The notes: generated by a model not told the origin, from the letters alone. Positions 14,195 through 63,480 are shown, counted from the first letter of the stretch. The stretch is 64,000 nt of DNA from Octopus vulgaris (GCA_951406725.2 OX597818.1:42408001-42472000), one strand, 5' to 3'. Numbers and translations are program-made.

Positions 14195-15739
14195 TTTACA
14201 GCAGGGTTACCATTCCTAACATAAACCAGGAACATTTTTCTAAATTAGGTGAGTTTAAACAAGTAGAATAATTACAGCATAATACAATGCCTGGAACAGG
14301 ATTTCGTCTCACAACTCATTTAATCTACCTCAGAATTTCAAAAATGGCACTGGTTGCTGGCTGAGAAATCTCTGCTTACATTTAAATAAATTAGAAAATA
14401 ATTCCTTAGCAGCCAGATGTCAGTGACTATATAGTTATTTTTAGGATCATAATTGAAGAATTTAATCAATTCAATCAAACAGGTAAGTTTTTTGGCGAAA
14501 ACAAACTGCCAACCAAAGTAACAAAAAAAGTGGGGATGGGGGGGGAATTGTTATACCGTTGCACACCCGCAAACAAACACATATCAAAATTACAATATTC
14601 AGCAGGTTAGACACATAATTCTTTACTTTAATAAGTTTTTGTCTCATATATATATCTTCATGTCATATTTTGAGGTTAGAAACATTGCATGTTATATTAA
14701 TAGTATTTCCAAATACTATTATAATAATAGTATTTTCCAAATACTATATAATAATAGTATTTTCATCACAAAAATATCTTCAGAGTTGATCATTGCCGAT
14801 GTTTTTCAATTCGGTGACTAAATTTCCGTGAAAAACCAAACATCTCGAGGTATCAACACGAAAAAGCCATTCTGATTATATACTTAGCTAATGATAAACG
14901 GAGACCATCTGAATACCATATAAAGTAAATTTAAACCAATTACACACATCATTAAAGATTGTTTTGCTGGTTCAATAATTGTAAAAAATTCTGTGTTGTG
15001 CAAGTTTTACAACAAATAGTGCCCGGTAGCTTAAACATTGAGAAAAAAATTGAAACCATGCAAGGTAATGAATATGTTCAACTAGTTGGATATATTATAA
15101 AGTGCTGCGCAATTTTGAGGTACCAAACTATAAATACACTGTTCGTCTATCTTCAAAAACAAATTTTAGTCACCTTAACAATTGAGAAAAAAAATTATTT
15201 CTTATCTTGACATCAACTACTATTTCGAAGTAGAATTCTGCAATGACTGTTCAGTAATAATTATAAAATACAAGAAATGTTTCGCATATAAGAAAAACAA
15301 TAAATAATGAAAGACAAAACTTTGAGTAACTTTGCGAATGCCCAAAAATAATCAGTTTTATGCTAGAATGTTCTTAAGAAATGAGTTGTGCTTAATTAGC
15401 AACAAAGGTTAACTTTGGTTTCATTAGAAGCAATATTTAGCTTTCAGATGGTGTCGGAGATAACACTAGATTGATAATGCAAGTCCACCTTAGAAATTGA
15501 TAACAGTGGACAAGTAAATTATTAAGGTCTTGGGGAAAAGCGGTGGGTGTTGAATGTTCAAGCTAATAATTAATAAAATAAAGATTTTCTTTATAGAAAA
15601 TATCAACAGTGAATATAACAGATTAACAACTATTACTACTGCCTATAAAATTAAATGATGCTTTAACAAGAATCCCATGAAACAGTAAATTTTAAAAAAT
15701 ATAGATTTCAATTTTAATTGAATGTAGCTATAAGGTAGT

Positions 15740-15779
<40 letters not shown>

Positions 15780-16283
15780 AAGTTAGGTACTTGTCAATTG
15801 TCGTGGTCCCGGTTTTGCACACGCGAATTCGCGCGCGCGCGCGCGCCAGACGTAGGTACTCGATACTCGAGATCCTACGAGGTGACTTGCGCATGCGCAG
15901 TGCAGAATTCGCGCGTGCGCGTTAACCCCCCCCCCCTAAAAAAAAAGGTGTTGGATTTCACTAAAAATATATGTGTGTGTGTGTGTGTGTATATATAACA
16001 TTTTCAATTTTACACAAAAAAATTACATAGTCGCTTTCCTCGCGGATTTACAGAGAAATGAATTAATTACTATTTTACAGAATAAAATTAATGAATTAAT
16101 TATATAAATTAAATAATTCTTGAAAATTAATTAATATTAATAATATTTTTTGAACAAAGTAAATAATTTATAAAACTTGGTTAATCATTTTTTTTACACA
16201 AACGCGAACGTATATAATTTGTGAAACTTTTTTTTTTTTACAGACGTATATAATTTGGTAAACTTAATGAATTAATTTCTTCT

Positions 16284-16704
16284 CATCATCATCATCGTTT
16301 AACGTCCGTTCTCCATGCCAGCATGGGTTGGACGGTTCGACCGGGATCTGGGAAGCCAGAAGGCTGCACCAGACTCCAGTCTTATCTGGCAATGTTTCTA
16401 CAGCTGGATGCCCTTCCTAACGCCAACCACTCCGAGAGTGTAGTGGGTGCTTTTTACATGCCACCCGCACAGGTGCCAGGCGAGGCTGGCAACGGCCACG
16501 GTCGGATTGGTGCCAGTCGAGGCGGCTCTGGCATCGGCCACGATTCGGATAGTGCTTTTTACGTACCACCAGTCCAGGGTCCTGGCATTTGCCGGGTGCC
16601 ACACTTGCCCCAACATGTCTTCGCAAGCAAAGGGGGTTGGCATGGGTGCCTGTCGTGGGATGAGGTTCGATATCAACTTCGCTTGCCTCAACAGGTCTTT
16701 GTGT
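16284..16704 (-). mobile_element. RTE-associated (ATG)n-tailed retroelement fragment in left arm
   Basis: (CAT)n-CGTTTAACGTCCG...GCATGGGTTGGACGG family; mirrored at 17817-18240. Confidence 0.85.
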
Positions 16705-17150
16705 ATAAATGTATAAATTTTTCGCACTAAATTCTTTCCGTAGAATTTATAAAAAAACGCGCAAAATTATTCCGTAGACTTTATCAAATTAAAAAACGCA
16801 AAATTAATATATTTTTTGAAATTGCAAATTATTTAGAATATAAAACAAATTAAGTTAAATTTTAAAAATAAATGTCATATACTTATACTCTGTAAGGTGC
16901 TGTGTTCACACTTCAATTTACTATTTTCTAGAAATGTTGCTTTTCTAATTGAAACAATTTTTCTCAATCTCCATTTAAAAGTCCATAATGCCTCTTGAGC
17001 CATATCAAAATGAACAACTTTGAATTACCCGGTGGTGGTGGTGTGAGGTTCTAATTTTTTTTCTGATCTCTCTTTGCCCCCCCTAGATGGAGGTGTGGTG
17101 GGGAGACAGATGAAAGATGTTTCATTCTCTACTATATATGTATATATATA

Positions 17151-17187
<37 letters not shown>

Positions 17188-17816
17188 CTTAAACCTACAC
17201 GATATAGTCTATAAATTTGGGATGTTTTTGAAAGATAATATATTTTGTCATCAGAATATATATACTTTCTCACACTACAATTAAGATATATTTATTTTAA
17301 ATCGTTCATCTTTTCCCGCGACAACAAAAATTGGGCGCGAAAATTTTTCTAAATATTAGCTGAATGAACAACTGAGATAAAGAGGGGGCAAAGAGAGATC
17401 AGAAAAAAAATTAGAACCTCACACCACCATCACCACCACCGGGTAATTCAAAGTTGTTCATTTTGATATGGCTCAAGAGGCATTATGGACTTTTAAATGG
17501 AGATTGAGAAAAATTGTTTCAATTAGAAAAGCAACATTTCTAGAAAATAGTAAATTGAAGTGTGAACACAGCACCTTACAGAGTATAAGTATATGACATT
17601 TATTTTTAAAATTTAACTTAAGCACCTTACAGAGTATAAGTATATGACATTTATTTTTAAAATTTAACTTAATTTGTTTTATATTCTAAATAATTTGCAA
17701 TTTCAAAAAATATATTAATTTTGCGTTTTTTAATTTGATAAAGTCTACGGAATAATTTTGCGCGTTTTTTTATAAATTCTACGGAAAGAATTTAGTGCGA
17801 AAAATTTATACATTTA

Positions 17817-18240
17817 TACACAAAGACCTGTTGAGGCAAGCGAAGTTGATATCGAACCTCATCCCACGACAGGCACCCATGCCAACCCCCTTTGCTTGCG
17901 AAGACATGTTGGGGCAAGTGTGGCACCCGGCAAATGCCAGGACCCCTGGACTGGTAGTACGTAAAAAGCACTATCCGAATCGTGGCCGATGCCAGAGCCG
18001 CCTCGACTGGCACCAATCCGACCGTGGCCGTTGCCAGCCTCGCCTGGCACCTGTGCGGGTGGCATGTAAAAAGCACCCACTACACTCTCGGAGTGGTTGG
18101 CGTTAGGAAGGGCATCCAGCTGTAGAAACATTGCCAGATAAGACTGGAGTCTGGTGCAGCCTTCTGGCTTCCCAGATCCCCGGTCGAACCGTCCAACCCA
18201 TGCTGGCATGGAGAACGGACGTTAAACGATGATGATGATG
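17817..18240 (+). mobile_element. Mirror copy of the retroelement fragment in right arm
   Basis: Reverse complement of 16284-16704 with ~2 differences. Confidence 0.85.
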
Positions 18241-18525
18241 AGAAGAAATTAATTCATTAAGTTTACCAAATTATATACGTCTGTAAAAAAAAAAAGTTTC
18301 ACAAATTATATACGTTCGCGTTTGTGTAAAAAAAATGATTAACCAAGTTTTATAAATTATTTACTTTGTTCAAAAAATATTATTAATATTAATTAATTTT
18401 CAAGAATTATTTAATTTATATAATTAATTCATTAATTTTATTCTGTAAAATAGTAATTAATTCATTTCTCTGTAAATCCGCGAGGAAAGCGACTATGTAA
18501 TTTTTTTGTGTAAAATTGAAAATGT

Positions 18526-18564
<39 letters not shown>

Positions 18565-19249
18565 TTTTAGTGAAATCCAACACCTTTTTTTTTAGGGGGG
18601 GGTTTAACGCGCACGCGCGAATTCTGCACTGCGCATGCGCAAGTCACCTCGTAGGATCTCGAGTATCGAGTACCTACGTCTGGCGCGCGCGCGCGCGCGA
18701 ATTCGCGTGTGCAAAACCGGGACCACGACAATTGACAAGTACCTTGAAGTTATATCTATTAAAAAAAAATTGAAAAATCTAAGCATATTTTTTTTTTAAA
18801 AAGTGTATTAAGATTACATTTACATAGTCATTCATTGTCTTTCCAGAGACAGATTGCCGACGTGTTTAAAAAGATGACAATTTACAAAACATTTCAAAGT
18901 TGTTTTATGTCAAGTTCTTTTGGTTTTATTTTATTACCTAATGACAGTAAAATAGATTTTTTTTTCCTTAAAATTAAACCAATTTTAAATTAAAAAAAAA
19001 AAAAAAAGAGGGAGAGGGGCCAGGGATTTTATTTATAAATAACAAAAAAACATTAATCAAGGAACTTCCTAAATTTTGTGATCATGTAATTCGATCACAA
19101 TTTGTTAACTCAATTTTATATATTTACACCAAACTAAAAACTGCAAAACAAAACCATGTGCAAAAATGACAAATGACAGATGATTTTTCAAAGTCCTGAA
19201 ATATCTTATGATCTTAATATTTATACCTTCTATTGCAAATATAAACATT

Positions 19250-21106
19250 TTACATAATGCAGCAACTCGGTGTCTTTTTTAATTTTTTAGTAAGAGGAGA
19301 ACTTTCTTCATTACCTGAAATTTGAATATTTGTTTCATGTGGATCTGAATTTGGAAGTGATTCACTATGTGAAGAGGCACGAGGTAAAGATGAACCCTTA
19401 TTAACATATTCTATTGCCTCTTCGGCTAGTTCCAAACCTTCTTCAATAACATCAACGAAACTTTTACAAGGACTGCTAGGTTCAACCACAGAGATAGAAC
19501 TCATTTCTGCAACAACCAGTGGTTCTATAACAGTTACTATTTCTGCAGGACAAGTTGATTCGGTATCTAATTGTGACTGAGATCCTATAACAGAATGGGA
19601 CGAATCGGGCCTCAGAGTTGAAGATGATGACATGTTCATTTCATCCGCATAGTTTACTGCCTCATCGGAAGTTGAATTAATTTTCTCTGATATATCAGTG
19701 GCTTTTTCAAATTCATTGTCAGGTGAAGGTTTTGAGGTTGAACCCAACTCCATTTGATTTTCACTAACCGATTCTGGAGCAGCGTTGCTATTTTTAGTTC
19801 CATTTTTAGAACTAGTACCAAAATTTATTTCATGCTCTATGTGGTAATAACCAGAGATGCCTTTTCGTTTTAACATTGAGCAGAGTTGTATACTACCTAC
19901 AGGCTGGCAGCCAAAATAGCTTTCGATAAATTCCTCATAAACGTCAGGATAAATCTTTTTCAATCCTGTCTTTTTAGTTAATTTTTTACCAACCCTCGAT
20001 AACTTCATCACAGTAACATGAGGCTTGAAATCTGATTGTTTTCCAACTAACCCTTCTGCAAAGAACTGCGCTTGAATTTCTTCAGCAATTTCTTCCAACT
20101 TTGCAACATGGTCTCCTGGCTGGACTTTAGCAAAAACTACTGAATTTCTAAAGTTTCCTAGACCTTGTAAAGGAAGCTTTAACAACTCCTTTTCATATTT
20201 TGGTGTCAGTTTAACTCCAGACCGATCTAATGCTGCTCTAGCCCGGTCTATATCGTCGTCTCCCCCTAAATGCATCACTGCAAGCGTCATGTGAAGACTA
20301 TGAAGCGGTACAACTGCCAAGGAATAATTTCCATTTTTTTTCATAACAGATTTCTGTACATCTTTTAAATTTGTATTAATTTCTGTATCAGAAAACTGGA
20401 TTGAAATAAAATAATTTGGAATTGGTTTGGACGACTTTTTATTTTGCTTTTTCGTTCGTGTTTCTTCGTCACTAAACACGGTTAAAATCGAATTATCATC
20501 ACTTAAATCATTAAAAGTTACTGTTGCACTTTCTTCATCGATAACTGTCTGTTTCGTAACACTGTCATTGCACTCCGAAGATGTCAAGACTTCACCCTCA
20601 GGAACAACCGTTATGTTTTCTGCCTCTTGTTTATCAATAAAAGTTTTAGGGCTAAAAGTTGGAGAAACAGTTTCGTCTACGAGAAAAGTTGTATTAGTTA
20701 ATTGATTTTCCTCTTCAGTATAAGAGTTATCGTTGAAATTACAAGGACTCTTTACAATGTCAGCCTGAGGGACTATTCCACCACGAATTTTTTCTGTCAC
20801 TGAGTCTAATAAAGATTTAGGAAGAATGCGCGACTTAAGTTTTGACTTTGTGTCTTGTATTGATTCGGGAGGAGAAATATCAGCTTTCGGAGGAGGGTCA
20901 GAATCACTTGCTGACATTTCTGAAGACAGTGACGGAGACATAGTAAGGCATTCATCACGGGAAGAAGGATTGTTCGTTGAAGAAGTATCTGTATCGCTAT
21001 AACCCCAGTCCATGTTTAGTGTAAGCTGCGACAACTTCAACGGTGGCTGCAGAGCGCCTATGACACCATGAAAGTTAATAAACAACTTCGACACAGAGCG
21101 AGACAT
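19250..21106 (-). CDS. AKAP7: AKAP7 (gamma/delta)-like 2H phosphoesterase, single coding exon; likely start at Met32 (21013)
   Basis: 618-aa ORF; PNYFISI start of domain, two HxT motifs (SLHMTL, FKPHVTVMKL), FGCQ..IQLCSM..GYY; AAACATGG context at 21013; C-terminus KKLKKTPSCCIM. Confidence 0.85.
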   Translation of the reverse strand: MSRSVSKLFINFHGVIGALQPPLKLSQLTLNMDWGYSDTDTSSTNNPSSRDECLTMSPSLSSEMSASDSDPPPKADISPPESIQDTKSKLKSRILPKSLLDSVTEKIRGGIVPQADIVKSPCNFNDNSYTEEENQLTNTTFLVDETVSPTFSPKTFIDKQEAENITVVPEGEVLTSSECNDSVTKQTVIDEESATVTFNDLSDDNSILTVFSDEETRTKKQNKKSSKPIPNYFISIQFSDTEINTNLKDVQKSVMKKNGNYSLAVVPLHSLHMTLAVMHLGGDDDIDRARAALDRSGVKLTPKYEKELLKLPLQGLGNFRNSVVFAKVQPGDHVAKLEEIAEEIQAQFFAEGLVGKQSDFKPHVTVMKLSRVGKKLTKKTGLKKIYPDVYEEFIESYFGCQPVGSIQLCSMLKRKGISGYYHIEHEINFGTSSKNGTKNSNAAPESVSENQMELGSTSKPSPDNEFEKATDISEKINSTSDEAVNYADEMNMSSSSTLRPDSSHSVIGSQSQLDTESTCPAEIVTVIEPLVVAEMSSISVVEPSSPCKSFVDVIEEGLELAEEAIEYVNKGSSLPRASSHSESLPNSDPHETNIQISGNEESSPLTKKLKKTPSCCIM

Positions 21107-21120
21107 TCGAAATCAGACAA

Positions 21121-21133
21121 GTGCGCATGCGTG
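21121..21133. promoter_or_regulatory. NRF1-like motif upstream of the AKAP7-like ORF
   Basis: GTGCGCATGCGTG. Confidence 0.4.
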
Positions 21134-21939
21134 AAAATATGGTTTGGTGGCTCATTAGAATGTACGGTGTATGCTCGGTGCTTGTCACTATAATTAGGTT
21201 TCAAACTTAATTAATCTTTTAACGTTTTATCTCATTTACTTTTTGTCATATCAACAATGGGTGAAGGCTGGAATTATGTACTCGTCACGCTGATCAAACT
21301 AGGCGATGATTTTACTTTAAAAATAAGCAATAATTTACTTTTAAGTTTAATTAAACTTAAATGTTGAAGAGAATCGAACGGCTTTTGTGTGTTTCTTAAA
21401 TGGCTTACAAACACCTTCCACACTGCAATTGTTTTCGTTTCAGCACACGATCTCAGATCAAATCACTTGCTATGCAAGTACATCTCCGTAATAATTTACT
21501 TATTTTCACTCAAACCAAACTAGGCAAAACAGATCGGGGCAATCTATCGGTGTCTCTCTTCCATACCCGAAATTCTTTCAGCATAACTTCATGAAAATTT
21601 TAAATTTTCCATTTAATTTTGCAGAGAAACATTTCGAAGATGTCGATTACGACTGTGTTAGTAACATTTAAAAAAAAAATGATTATTTCAAATAATTTTC
21701 CACCCGCTCTCGATTCTGTTTCCTCATAACTCTCTTTAAAATGCATATTTTAAAATATTTTGCCGATAATTTTTTGAGTGAATTTCGAATCGTTCTTCCT
21801 CCTCCCACCTTGATTTTGATATCACTAATTCCCGTAACTTGTGTATTGTTCACTCGTGTTTTGTTTATTTATTTATTTCCGTTATATCTTTTGTCTTGTT
21901 TCTGTCATTGGAATGTGGTATCAAGCGCTGCTGGACACA

Positions 21940-61644: not shown

Positions 61645-63480
61645 TGTGGTGTGTTGGGGGTGTGTGCATGTGTTTCATTCTAGTTTCCTATTCAGGCTAG
61701 GTTTATCTTCTATCATGTGTGTAGCTTCTGTAATTTGTCTAAGCGTTGCGTCTGTTCTATGTGTGGACAAGATTTCAACTTTTATGTTGTTGAACTAACC
61801 CTGATAGCTGCCCCCTCATCAGGATGAGGGGGCAGCCATCGGGGTTAGTATCACCGGTGATGTGGCCAACTTTTTCATGGTATGGTGGGACAGTAGGCTT
61901 AAAAAATGCCTGACACAGAACTCCATACTCATGAACATGTACTCTCGCTATGTCGATGATATCAACATAGTGGTAAAGGCTCCCCCACAAGAGAGTACTT
62001 TTGAAATAGAAATAGAAACTAATACTATGGAGAGCACCCAGCAAATAGCTAACTCCATCCACCAGAGTATTAAGGTCACGATAGACTACCCTACGAAACA
62101 CCCACTATAGACTACCACTACTAGATACAGAACTCTGGCTGGAAGATGTGAATAATAAAACCCAGATCCTTCATTCACACTATGCCAAACCTATGACCTC
62201 CAAATACCTGATCTTCCGGAACTCAGCTATCGCAGACAATTCCAAATTCAGTATATTGATGGCAGACCTCATCAGAGTAATGAGAAATGTGTCTCGCATG
62301 TGTGACCCTACAGAGTTAAAGAGACACATACAACATTTCGTTCACCGCATGCAGTTCTCAGGATACAGCCATAAAGAAAAGGCCAGAGTATACAAAGGAG
62401 CCATGAAGAAATTTGAAAATATCATACGTAACAATAGGAATGGGATTTTCCCACTCTATAGGAGCGTATCATGGAACACCATTGAAAGGACTTAGAAGAA
62501 AATAGGGAAGACCAACTCATGGTATGATAGCCACAAATATCAAAGTGTCATGTTCGTCGACACCACCCCTAGAGGCAAACTGGCGTACTGCTTTAGAAGG
62601 GCCCTAGACAAACTTAAGCGAAGAATTAAGGTTGTTGAAAGGCCAGGCAACCCTATCAAATCCCTAATCAGTAGAACCTACCCTTTTAGTAGAACCCCCT
62701 GTACTGTATATAGATTTAATCCACAAACAAACTGTAAAGCCAGGAATGTAGTCTATAGTATAAGATGTACAGAGGGATGGTGTAGTAACATGACAATGAC
62801 GTATGTAGGAGAAACAGCACGGAGCATAGGAGAGGGGGTAAATGAGCATTGGAGGGAACTTAAGGAAGAGAACTCATCGGTTCTGTACCAGCATGCTGAG
62901 CAGGAACACGGGGGTTCGCTCAACAACATAGAAGTTAAAATCTTGTCCACACATAGAACAGATGCAACACTTAGATAAATTACAGAAGCTATACTCATAA
63001 TAGAAGATAAACCTAGCCTGAATAGGAAACTAGAACGAAACACTAGCACACACACCCAATATACCACAAACTATGACAGAATAAGATCCCCATAAACTGA
63101 TAACAATATGAATATAATATAATACAATACACAGATAAATAAAAGGAATTAAATAACTATATACATTAACAAAATAAATTAAATTAAATACAAAAAAAAC
63201 AGAAAAAATAAAGAAAGGAAAAAATAAGTAGATATAAATAAATGAACAAAATAAATAAAAACAAACTAAACGAACATGTATAAACAGGAGAAATGATAAT
63301 ACAGGCACATTCCCACACACACGCACACTTACAAAACATAGACATACAAAAAAGAAAGAAGAAAGCAAAGGACCACTGATGAGGTCACAGATGTGTGACG
63401 AAAGAACTCTGGCCAAAATACAATTAATATAAAATAAAGTTGAAGCAAGTGAACACCAAATATAGAGTGCATACATTTTC
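61645..63480 (+). mobile_element. 5'-truncated Penelope-like retroelement (Naiad-type features) with inverted 3' copy at its 5' end
   Basis: RT: TGDVANFFMVWWD, RYVDD, YAKPM, RMQFSGY. GIY-YIG: VVYSIRC...C...YVGET...H...HAEQEH. Stops and frameshifts present. 61645-61793 is an inverted copy of ~62920-63068. Confidence 0.9.
63370..63414 (+). ncRNA. Minimal type I hammerhead ribozyme in the Penelope 3' region
   Basis: GGACCA-CTGATGA-G-GTCACA gatg TGTGAC-GAAA-G aa CTC^TGGCC. Confidence 0.8.

Follow-up and report, generated by a model that had tools for sequence, protein, structure and literature searches.

A cephalopod AKAP7-like 2H phosphoesterase is likely farnesylated at a conserved C-terminal tail

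The closest described systems are the vertebrate AKAP7 (AKAP18) proteins, the AKAP7-like enzymes of invertebrates and the CNPase of vertebrate myelin, all of which are 2H enzymes. Mouse AKAP7 and an AKAP7-like oyster enzyme, the latter reported to be active in 2',5'-oligoadenylate degradation, cleave 2',5' bonds and leave 2',3'-cyclic phosphates (PMC8406329, citing Lopp et al. 2019 for the oyster enzyme). OAS and RNase L are reported to be absent in Aplysia (PMC9334734), and the cellular job of the AKAP7 enzyme domain, its mammalian substrate included, has been called mysterious (PMC10835031). Location decides whether mouse AKAP7 can dampen RNase L: the full-length protein is reported to be nuclear in macrophages, and during infection RNase L is blunted by the cytoplasmic forms alone (PMC4161237). 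The short AKAP7 forms are reported to be lipidated, while long forms reach sarcomeres, vesicles and the sarcoplasmic reticulum (PMC12221368, PMC3508976, PMC13025221). Lipidation of vertebrate AKAP7 is reported to be confined to short forms that lack the domain, and to be N-terminal. The initial annotation of the Octopus locus considered here gave this background correctly for the short isoforms, while its description of the long isoforms as soluble is imprecise, given their reported occurrence in the nucleus, on vesicles and at the sarcoplasmic reticulum. AKAP7-like enzymes are by definition without a PKA-binding domain, and a vertebrate origin has been proposed for the AKAP7 PKA helix (PMC3508976). 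CNPase is reported to have an isoprenylated C-terminus, and an upstream start that gives rise to a longer, mitochondrial form (PMC7072810, PMC3290555, PMC3832489).

The window, a 64,000-nucleotide stretch of Octopus vulgaris DNA (GCA_951406725.2, OX597818.1:42408001-42472000), consists of animal DNA rich in repeats; of its thirteen stop-to-stop frames of at least 130 codons, one is clearly a protein-coding gene. The frame of this gene (19250-21112, minus strand) is open over 620 codons up to a TAA stop at 19252-19250, and residue numbering starts at the ATG at 21106 (Table 1). Translation to this stop bears out the C-terminal end read in the initial annotation, KKLKKTPSCCIM-TAA, with SPLTKKLKKTPSCCIM as the residues just ahead of the TAA. 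With Octopus sinensis LOC115211903 the product shares 99 % identity, and no second cephalopod copy was found among the seven and six matches of two word-index homologue searches (322-1028 residues).

Transcript contigs from four runs of four studies (of 20 runs listed), the RNA status of which is a tool's guess, were checked over positions 18700-21600. Single contigs run unbroken over 18820-21131 (X1), 19022-21094 (X5), 19064-21136 (X7) and 19107-20938 (X10). The stop codon is crossed by contigs of all four probable RNA runs with no joint listed, so that splicing ahead of this stop, which the initial annotation had named as one outcome that would count against it, is not seen in these contigs. 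Depth is zero at 21222-21318 in all four runs and the X5 contig has an adapter-like loose end at 21094, presumably a cDNA template-switch primer, both of which fit cDNA of a minus-strand transcript. As contigs drop rare variants and a donor-like site (CAG/GTAATG) is located at 19314, a rare isoform could skip the tail. At 20407 one X10 contig has C instead of T (A to G in the sense of the transcript), replacing Ile234 with Val, the majority residue of the family at this position; this single contig fits an allele or A-to-I editing alike. A palindrome, TGCGCATGCG, is found at 21122-21132, where the transcript contigs begin; it resembles an NRF-1 site, and the same word occurs in the arms of the foldback element that lies beyond the stop codon.

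The foldback element is flanked by a 9-base direct repeat, TTGAAGTTA (15777-15785 and 18744-18752), and its long arms together with this repeat suggest an insertion of the Mutator-like class. A contig of run X5 passes from 18744 straight into sequence matching 15731-15760; the animal concerned is thus without the element, and its insertion site is likely spanned by the 3' UTR. The end of the element is also found in other flanks on other contigs. At 62085-62978 two adjacent frames split by a stop resemble a decayed retroelement, with a GIY-YIG-like motif recognised by eye.

Table 1. Features of the AKAP7-like locus and its surroundings; positions are counted from the first base of the window.
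Feature	Position	Strand	Remarks
AKAP7-like protein ORF	19250..21106	minus	Single exon; 618 aa from first ATG, 587 aa from second
Contig-start region	21094..21136	minus	X7 21136 and X1 21131 (above first ATG); X5 21094 (between the two ATGs)
In-frame extension	21014..21106	minus	31 codons from first ATG; basic, acid-free, amphipathic, presequence-like
Acidic Ser/Thr-rich N-terminal region	20420..21013	minus	From second ATG
AKAP7-type 2H phosphoesterase domain	19817..20419	minus	Residues 230-430; Pfam PF10469, AKAP18 structures
HMT motif	20285-20293	minus	Residues 272-274
HVT motif	20012-20020	minus	Residues 363-365
Ser/Thr- and acid-rich linker	19463..19816	minus	Predicted disordered
Acidic helix SFVDVIEEGLELAEEAIEYV	19403-19462	minus	Residues 549-568; net -7
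Basic run KKLKK	19274..19288	minus	Residues 607-611; predicted second membrane signal
CaaX box CCIM	19253..19264	minus	Residues 615-618; Cys615 predicted prenyl acceptor, Cys616 lineage-specific
Foldback element	15786-18743		2,958 bases; arms 98-100 % complementary; about 500 bases past stop codon

The domain of the Octopus protein matches the Pfam AKAP7_NLS family (PF10469) with an E-value of 1.2e-38 and 133.5 bits, against a curated cut-off of 24.4, and its best PDB sequence match is AKAP18 (E 1.6e-39). It is modelled by AlphaFold at pLDDT values of 89-99, and the top four rows of a Foldseek comparison with this model are AKAP18 (E about 1e-21, 39 % identity, rmsd about 2). Both catalytic His and both Thr residues are invariant in a 63-sequence family alignment, and octopods share 72-73 % identity with the cuttlefish-side proteins over the domain. 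The initial annotation was right in assigning an AKAP7-like domain with both HxT motifs (HMT and HVT) intact. Its wording of the activity as that of a 2-5A/cyclic-phosphate esterase is imprecise, as AKAP7-type enzymes are reported not to open 2',3'-cyclic phosphates but to leave them as products. By analogy with the mouse and oyster relatives, the domain is predicted to cut 2',5'-linked oligonucleotides. About two thirds of the protein is low-complexity, and the distance from the domain to the C-terminus ranges from 170 to 345 residues among coleoids. The C-terminal flank is modelled by AlphaFold at low confidence, and when the last 80 residues were modelled in complex with the domain, without alignments, the score was 0.03 against a mark of 0.34, which speaks neither for nor against a contact.

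At 90 % identity the cephalopod proteins form six clusters, namely the O. sinensis and Octopus protein, O. bimaculoides, P0004 (octopod-side), Argonauta hians, P0006 (which groups with cuttlefish) and a Sepia pharaonis-containing cluster, so that the coleoid sampling comprises two deep lineages, the octopods and the cuttlefish side. The tail, for which the initial annotation had asked conservation in related species, is kept in all six. The cluster ends read CCIM, CNIM, CSIM, CSIM, CSVM and CVLM/CILM, with Cys at -4, an aliphatic residue at -2 (I, V or L) and Met at -1 fixed throughout, while -3 varies freely. Among the twelve residues before the Cys, four are basic in octopods and seven in the cuttlefish-side proteins, and the basic run followed by C-x-[IVL]-M is found in 17 of 18 coleoid rows. 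The exception, a 439-aa Sepia pharaonis model (P0011) without the tail and the domain end, which terminates in Phe-rich low-complexity sequence, is read as a faulty gene model since the tail is present in nine of the ten proteins clustered with it. When octopods are aligned with cuttlefish-side proteins, the last 15 residues match gap-free with a BLOSUM sum of 25-31, as opposed to -13 to -19 for the preceding 15, and the 36 residues before the tail share 11 % identity. A basic run with a C-x-aliphatic-X end was obtained in about 1/200,000 draws at the composition of the C-terminal region (range 5e-6 to 1e-5). A fixed Cys, aliphatic residue and Met around a free -3 position is the pattern that would result from selection for a prenyltransferase substrate, and a CaaX box with a terminal Met is a farnesylation signal. 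The tail is thus likely a selected prenylation signal that was gained in cephalopods. Considering that the octopod tail has no more than four basic residues and is preceded closely by acidic ones, its plasma-membrane binding may be weak. The combined prenyl and palmitoyl modification proposed for the CCaX end in the initial annotation does not hold as a feature of the gene: the second Cys occurs in one of six clusters (N, S, S, S and V/I in the others), and is most readily explained by substitution at -3, a position that tolerates change.

A homologue search over 1.84 billion representatives gave 966 matches, the best 150 of which were read; among these the nearest relatives by sequence are invertebrate AKAP7-like proteins, with up to 48 % identity to a Sinanodonta protein. 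Among 228 non-coleoid rows, which are redundant, rich in corals and mostly represent one isoform per gene, a Cys at -4 is found in three and the full motif in two, and no CaaX end occurs in fourteen bivalve and gastropod rows (eight named genera) or three Lingula rows. The two full-motif rows, P0114 and P0080, are cnidarian-side singletons with a basic run and CMVM or CDIL, the close relatives of which are without it, and fall in a 17-row group with corals in a quick tree. Their tails are read as sporadic independent gains or faulty gene calls. An ancestral cnidarian CaaX was considered and rejected, with only P0114 and P0080 ending in Cys-x-x-x among 83 matches to P0114. The quick tree, from which eleven cephalopod rows that were truncated or nearly duplicate and all rows with no more than 160 matching columns were left out, unites the coleoid rows in a single clade (SH-aLRT 100). 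The clade is nested in a group of 22 rows (95), most of them molluscan or brachiopod. This group also includes a tunicate row, which renders the deep branches unsure. The simplest reading is that the cephalopod line gained the tail; none of the rows was identified as coming from Nautilus. Among the open-access papers listed for AKAP7 and CaaX, cephalopod or 2H prenylation, there was no report of such an AKAP7 tail, and molluscs, prenylation and CaaX are not mentioned in the accessible part of PMC12083921.

Taken together, the cephalopod AKAP7-like 2H phosphoesterase is likely farnesylated at its conserved tail, which would tether the predicted 2',5'-cutting domain to membranes. Following general CaaX biology, Cys615 would be farnesylated, with removal of the last three residues and methylation. 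Binding to anionic membranes would occur through the lipid and the lysines, as in KRAS4B, a polybasic-CaaX protein with a terminal Met that binds the membrane by these means. The enzyme domain would be held on a long, flexible, disordered linker at the cytosolic face of membranes and would, if it acts as its relatives do, cleave 2',5'-linked oligonucleotides independently of metal and leave 2',3'-cyclic phosphates. The cephalopod line probably gained the tail and lost the PKA-anchoring helix, so that what had been a kinase anchor bearing an enzyme domain became an enzyme placed at membranes, and the upstream ATG may, with about even chances, add a mitochondrial form.

This last element can be extended to two products as in CNP2 and CNP1, a long mitochondrial form from the first ATG and a short prenylated form from the second, a proposal that falls just short of an even chance. 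The first ATG stands in a weak context (CGA-ATG-T) and the second (21013) in a strong one (AAC-ATG-G), and there are contig starts above the first as well as between the two. In all six coleoid clusters the second Met is preceded by 31-46 in-frame residues that are basic, nearly acid-free and amphipathic. In the NCBI models of Octopus sinensis and O. bimaculoides, translation begins at the first ATG; gene callers, however, extend to the first ATG by default. Under a home-made presequence rule, which is crude and was written after seeing the sequences, seven of seven coleoid first-Met starts pass and none of the seven second-Met starts, against backgrounds of 82/1283 internal Met starts and 110/681 (16 %) open ATG frames in the window DNA, where 520 of 2601 ATGs stay open for 31 codons. 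Outside the cephalopods 46 of 143 family representatives pass the rule. Presequence-like N-termini are seen among P0020-P0166, including bat (P0144), gecko (P0052), bivalve and brachiopod proteins. Trypanosome AKAP7_NLS proteins are mitochondrial ribosome subunits according to PDB sequence and fold matches, and CNPase itself provides a precedent. However, identity in the extension is 13-17 % between octopods and cuttlefish-side proteins, below that of the acidic region behind it, and another ATG at 21128, in a different frame, overlaps the first. No paper on an AKAP7 isoform with mitochondrial targeting was found by title in the open-access literature. An overlooked mitochondrial isoform in the AKAP7 family is thus possible, and if true, a mitochondrial form across animals would point to a substrate other than antiviral 2-5A.

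Alternatively, the protein could be a membrane AKAP, in which the acidic helix (Table 1) would bind PKA and CCIM would carry both prenyl and palmitoyl groups, but this is unlikely. The putative PKA helix of the initial annotation is present and conserved; its PKA part is not borne out, with a helix-profile score of -3.7 at best and no match to the RI/RII-binding domain of AKAP7 (PF10470) at E-values up to 1, a domain matched in 10 of 41 relatives scanned. The helix is amphipathic and shares 81 % identity with Argonauta, compared to 29 % in the linker, and 48 % with the cuttlefish-side proteins, compared to about 20 %. In every coleoid cluster its core keeps a distance of 58-61 residues to the C-terminus, while the distance from domain to end varies widely, and it is modelled as helical at pLDDT values below 50. 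It meets five of the six positions of an AKAP consensus, but so do 57 % of shuffles of the same 24 residues. The profile, built from 25 family helices picked by eye, gives -1.1 to -9.4 for three other coleoids, and in seven coleoid proteins no segment of the C-terminal region scored better than its shuffles (p 0.34-0.75). When invertebrate helices are left out of the profile, their scores range from -3.6 to 36.8, with 11 of 13 at 7 or above; two of these thirteen presumed helices nonetheless fall under 2, which leaves some room for a PKA helix with a low score. The helix lies 120 residues beyond the usual post-domain position in the family; AKAP-like helices far from the domain in amphioxus make such a displacement possible, while prolines flank the helix core in P0006.

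An AKAP-like helix follows close after the domain in vertebrates, amphioxus, a hemichordate, bivalves and abalone, and is absent in coleoids, where the sequence at this position is polar and contains proline. A downstream exon with an AKAP helix was rejected, the four best scores of a six-frame scan of the window (10.6-16.4) being copies of one repeat, and the ESM Atlas gave no usable match for residues 535-617. For the double lipid, CCaX ends with both modifications are cited for PRL-3 and brain Cdc42, but double lipidation is not general for CCaX proteins in the accessible part of the same source (PMC5095905), and the second Cys is restricted to a single cluster here. More probably, the acidic helix binds some partner near the membrane. 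Lacking a PKA-binding domain, the Octopus protein belongs with the AKAP7-like enzymes and should not be filed as an AKAP. PKA-helix look-alikes follow the domain in P0020 (Sinanodonta), P0039 (Haliotis), P0045 (Mizuhopecten), P0126 (Mytilus), P0023 (Glandiceps) and P0024 (Branchiostoma, four copies). A profile from invertebrate helices alone scores the vertebrate AKAP7 helix at 14.9, and these putative invertebrate PKA helices sit badly with the vertebrate origin proposed in PMC3508976.

An equally improbable role is that of a prenylated membrane scaffold or AMP-binding sensor, with catalysis having no physiological part in cephalopods. The AKAP18 domain has been crystallised with AMP and proposed as an AMP sensor with a protein-docking surface (PMC3290555, PMC12221368), what 2-5A-cleaving enzymes do in invertebrates is described as unknown (PMC8406329), and most of the protein is low-complexity. 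Invariance of the His/Thr pairs across the family alignment argues for catalysis, although ligand binding alone could also conserve them, and the high identity of the domain across the coleoid split and the reported activity of the oyster homologue point the same way. That the tail is a chance ending, or solely a nuclear import signal without lipid, is very improbable given the three fixed positions around a free -3 in all clusters and the low chance expectation, even though an unprenylated basic run by a CaaX box can act as a nuclear signal in PRL-3 (PMC5095905), mouse AKAP7 is reported to be nuclear (PMC4161237) and the two cnidarian-side singletons show that such ends can originate sporadically.

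The preferred reading, a farnesylated and membrane-tethered 2H enzyme, can be set against the known systems. Proteins of the KRAS4B type and PRL-3 share a basic run followed by a CaaX box with a terminal Met, but their catalytic domains are unrelated and the CC form is not conserved in the coleoid proteins. The invertebrate AKAP7-like proteins, including the oyster enzyme, share long low-complexity flanks and several keep an AKAP-like helix right after the domain, but unlike the coleoids, the fourteen bivalve and gastropod rows are without a CaaX end. Vertebrate AKAP7 gamma/delta shares the 2H domain (39-40 % identity, rmsd about 2) and both HxT motifs, while the Octopus protein differs in the lack of PF10470, a CaaX box in place of the helix, a single exon and long acidic flanks. 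With the active site kept, the PKA helix absent and the membrane signal fixed, the coleoids would represent a natural experiment in which selection kept the enzyme and not the kinase anchor, and the pattern suggests that the substrate or product of the AKAP7 enzyme matters at a membrane.

The layout itself is closest to that of CNPase, an enzyme of another 2H branch, the disordered tail of which has an isoprenylation site at the C-terminus, so that the "unusual architecture" of the initial annotation was an overstatement; within the accessible literature, a precedent was found in the 2H superfamily (CNPase) and none within the AKAP7 family. CNPase also uses two starts (CNP1/CNP2), the longer form adding a mitochondrial signal, and the Octopus gene has two in-frame ATGs with a presequence-like extension. 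However, CNPase is reported to open the 2',3'-cyclic phosphates that AKAP7-type enzymes make, its tail of about 20 residues places the active site near the membrane as opposed to 170-345 residues among the coleoids, and its kinase-like N-terminal domain has no Pfam match in the Octopus protein. No CNPase entry occurs among the four Pfam matches, the six PDB sequence matches or the best 35 of 58 fold rows (E <=0.001). As the Octopus protein is AKAP7-type by sequence and fold, and its predicted reaction is different, the likeness is read as convergent. A broader, rather doubtful proposal is that coleoids rebuilt AKAP7 as a counterpart of CNPase, dropping the helix, gaining a prenyl anchor and using two starts to reach membranes and mitochondria, with the mitochondrial form being old across animals. 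If the prenylation of the coleoid tail is true, this protein would be a second, independent prenylated 2H enzyme beside CNPase.
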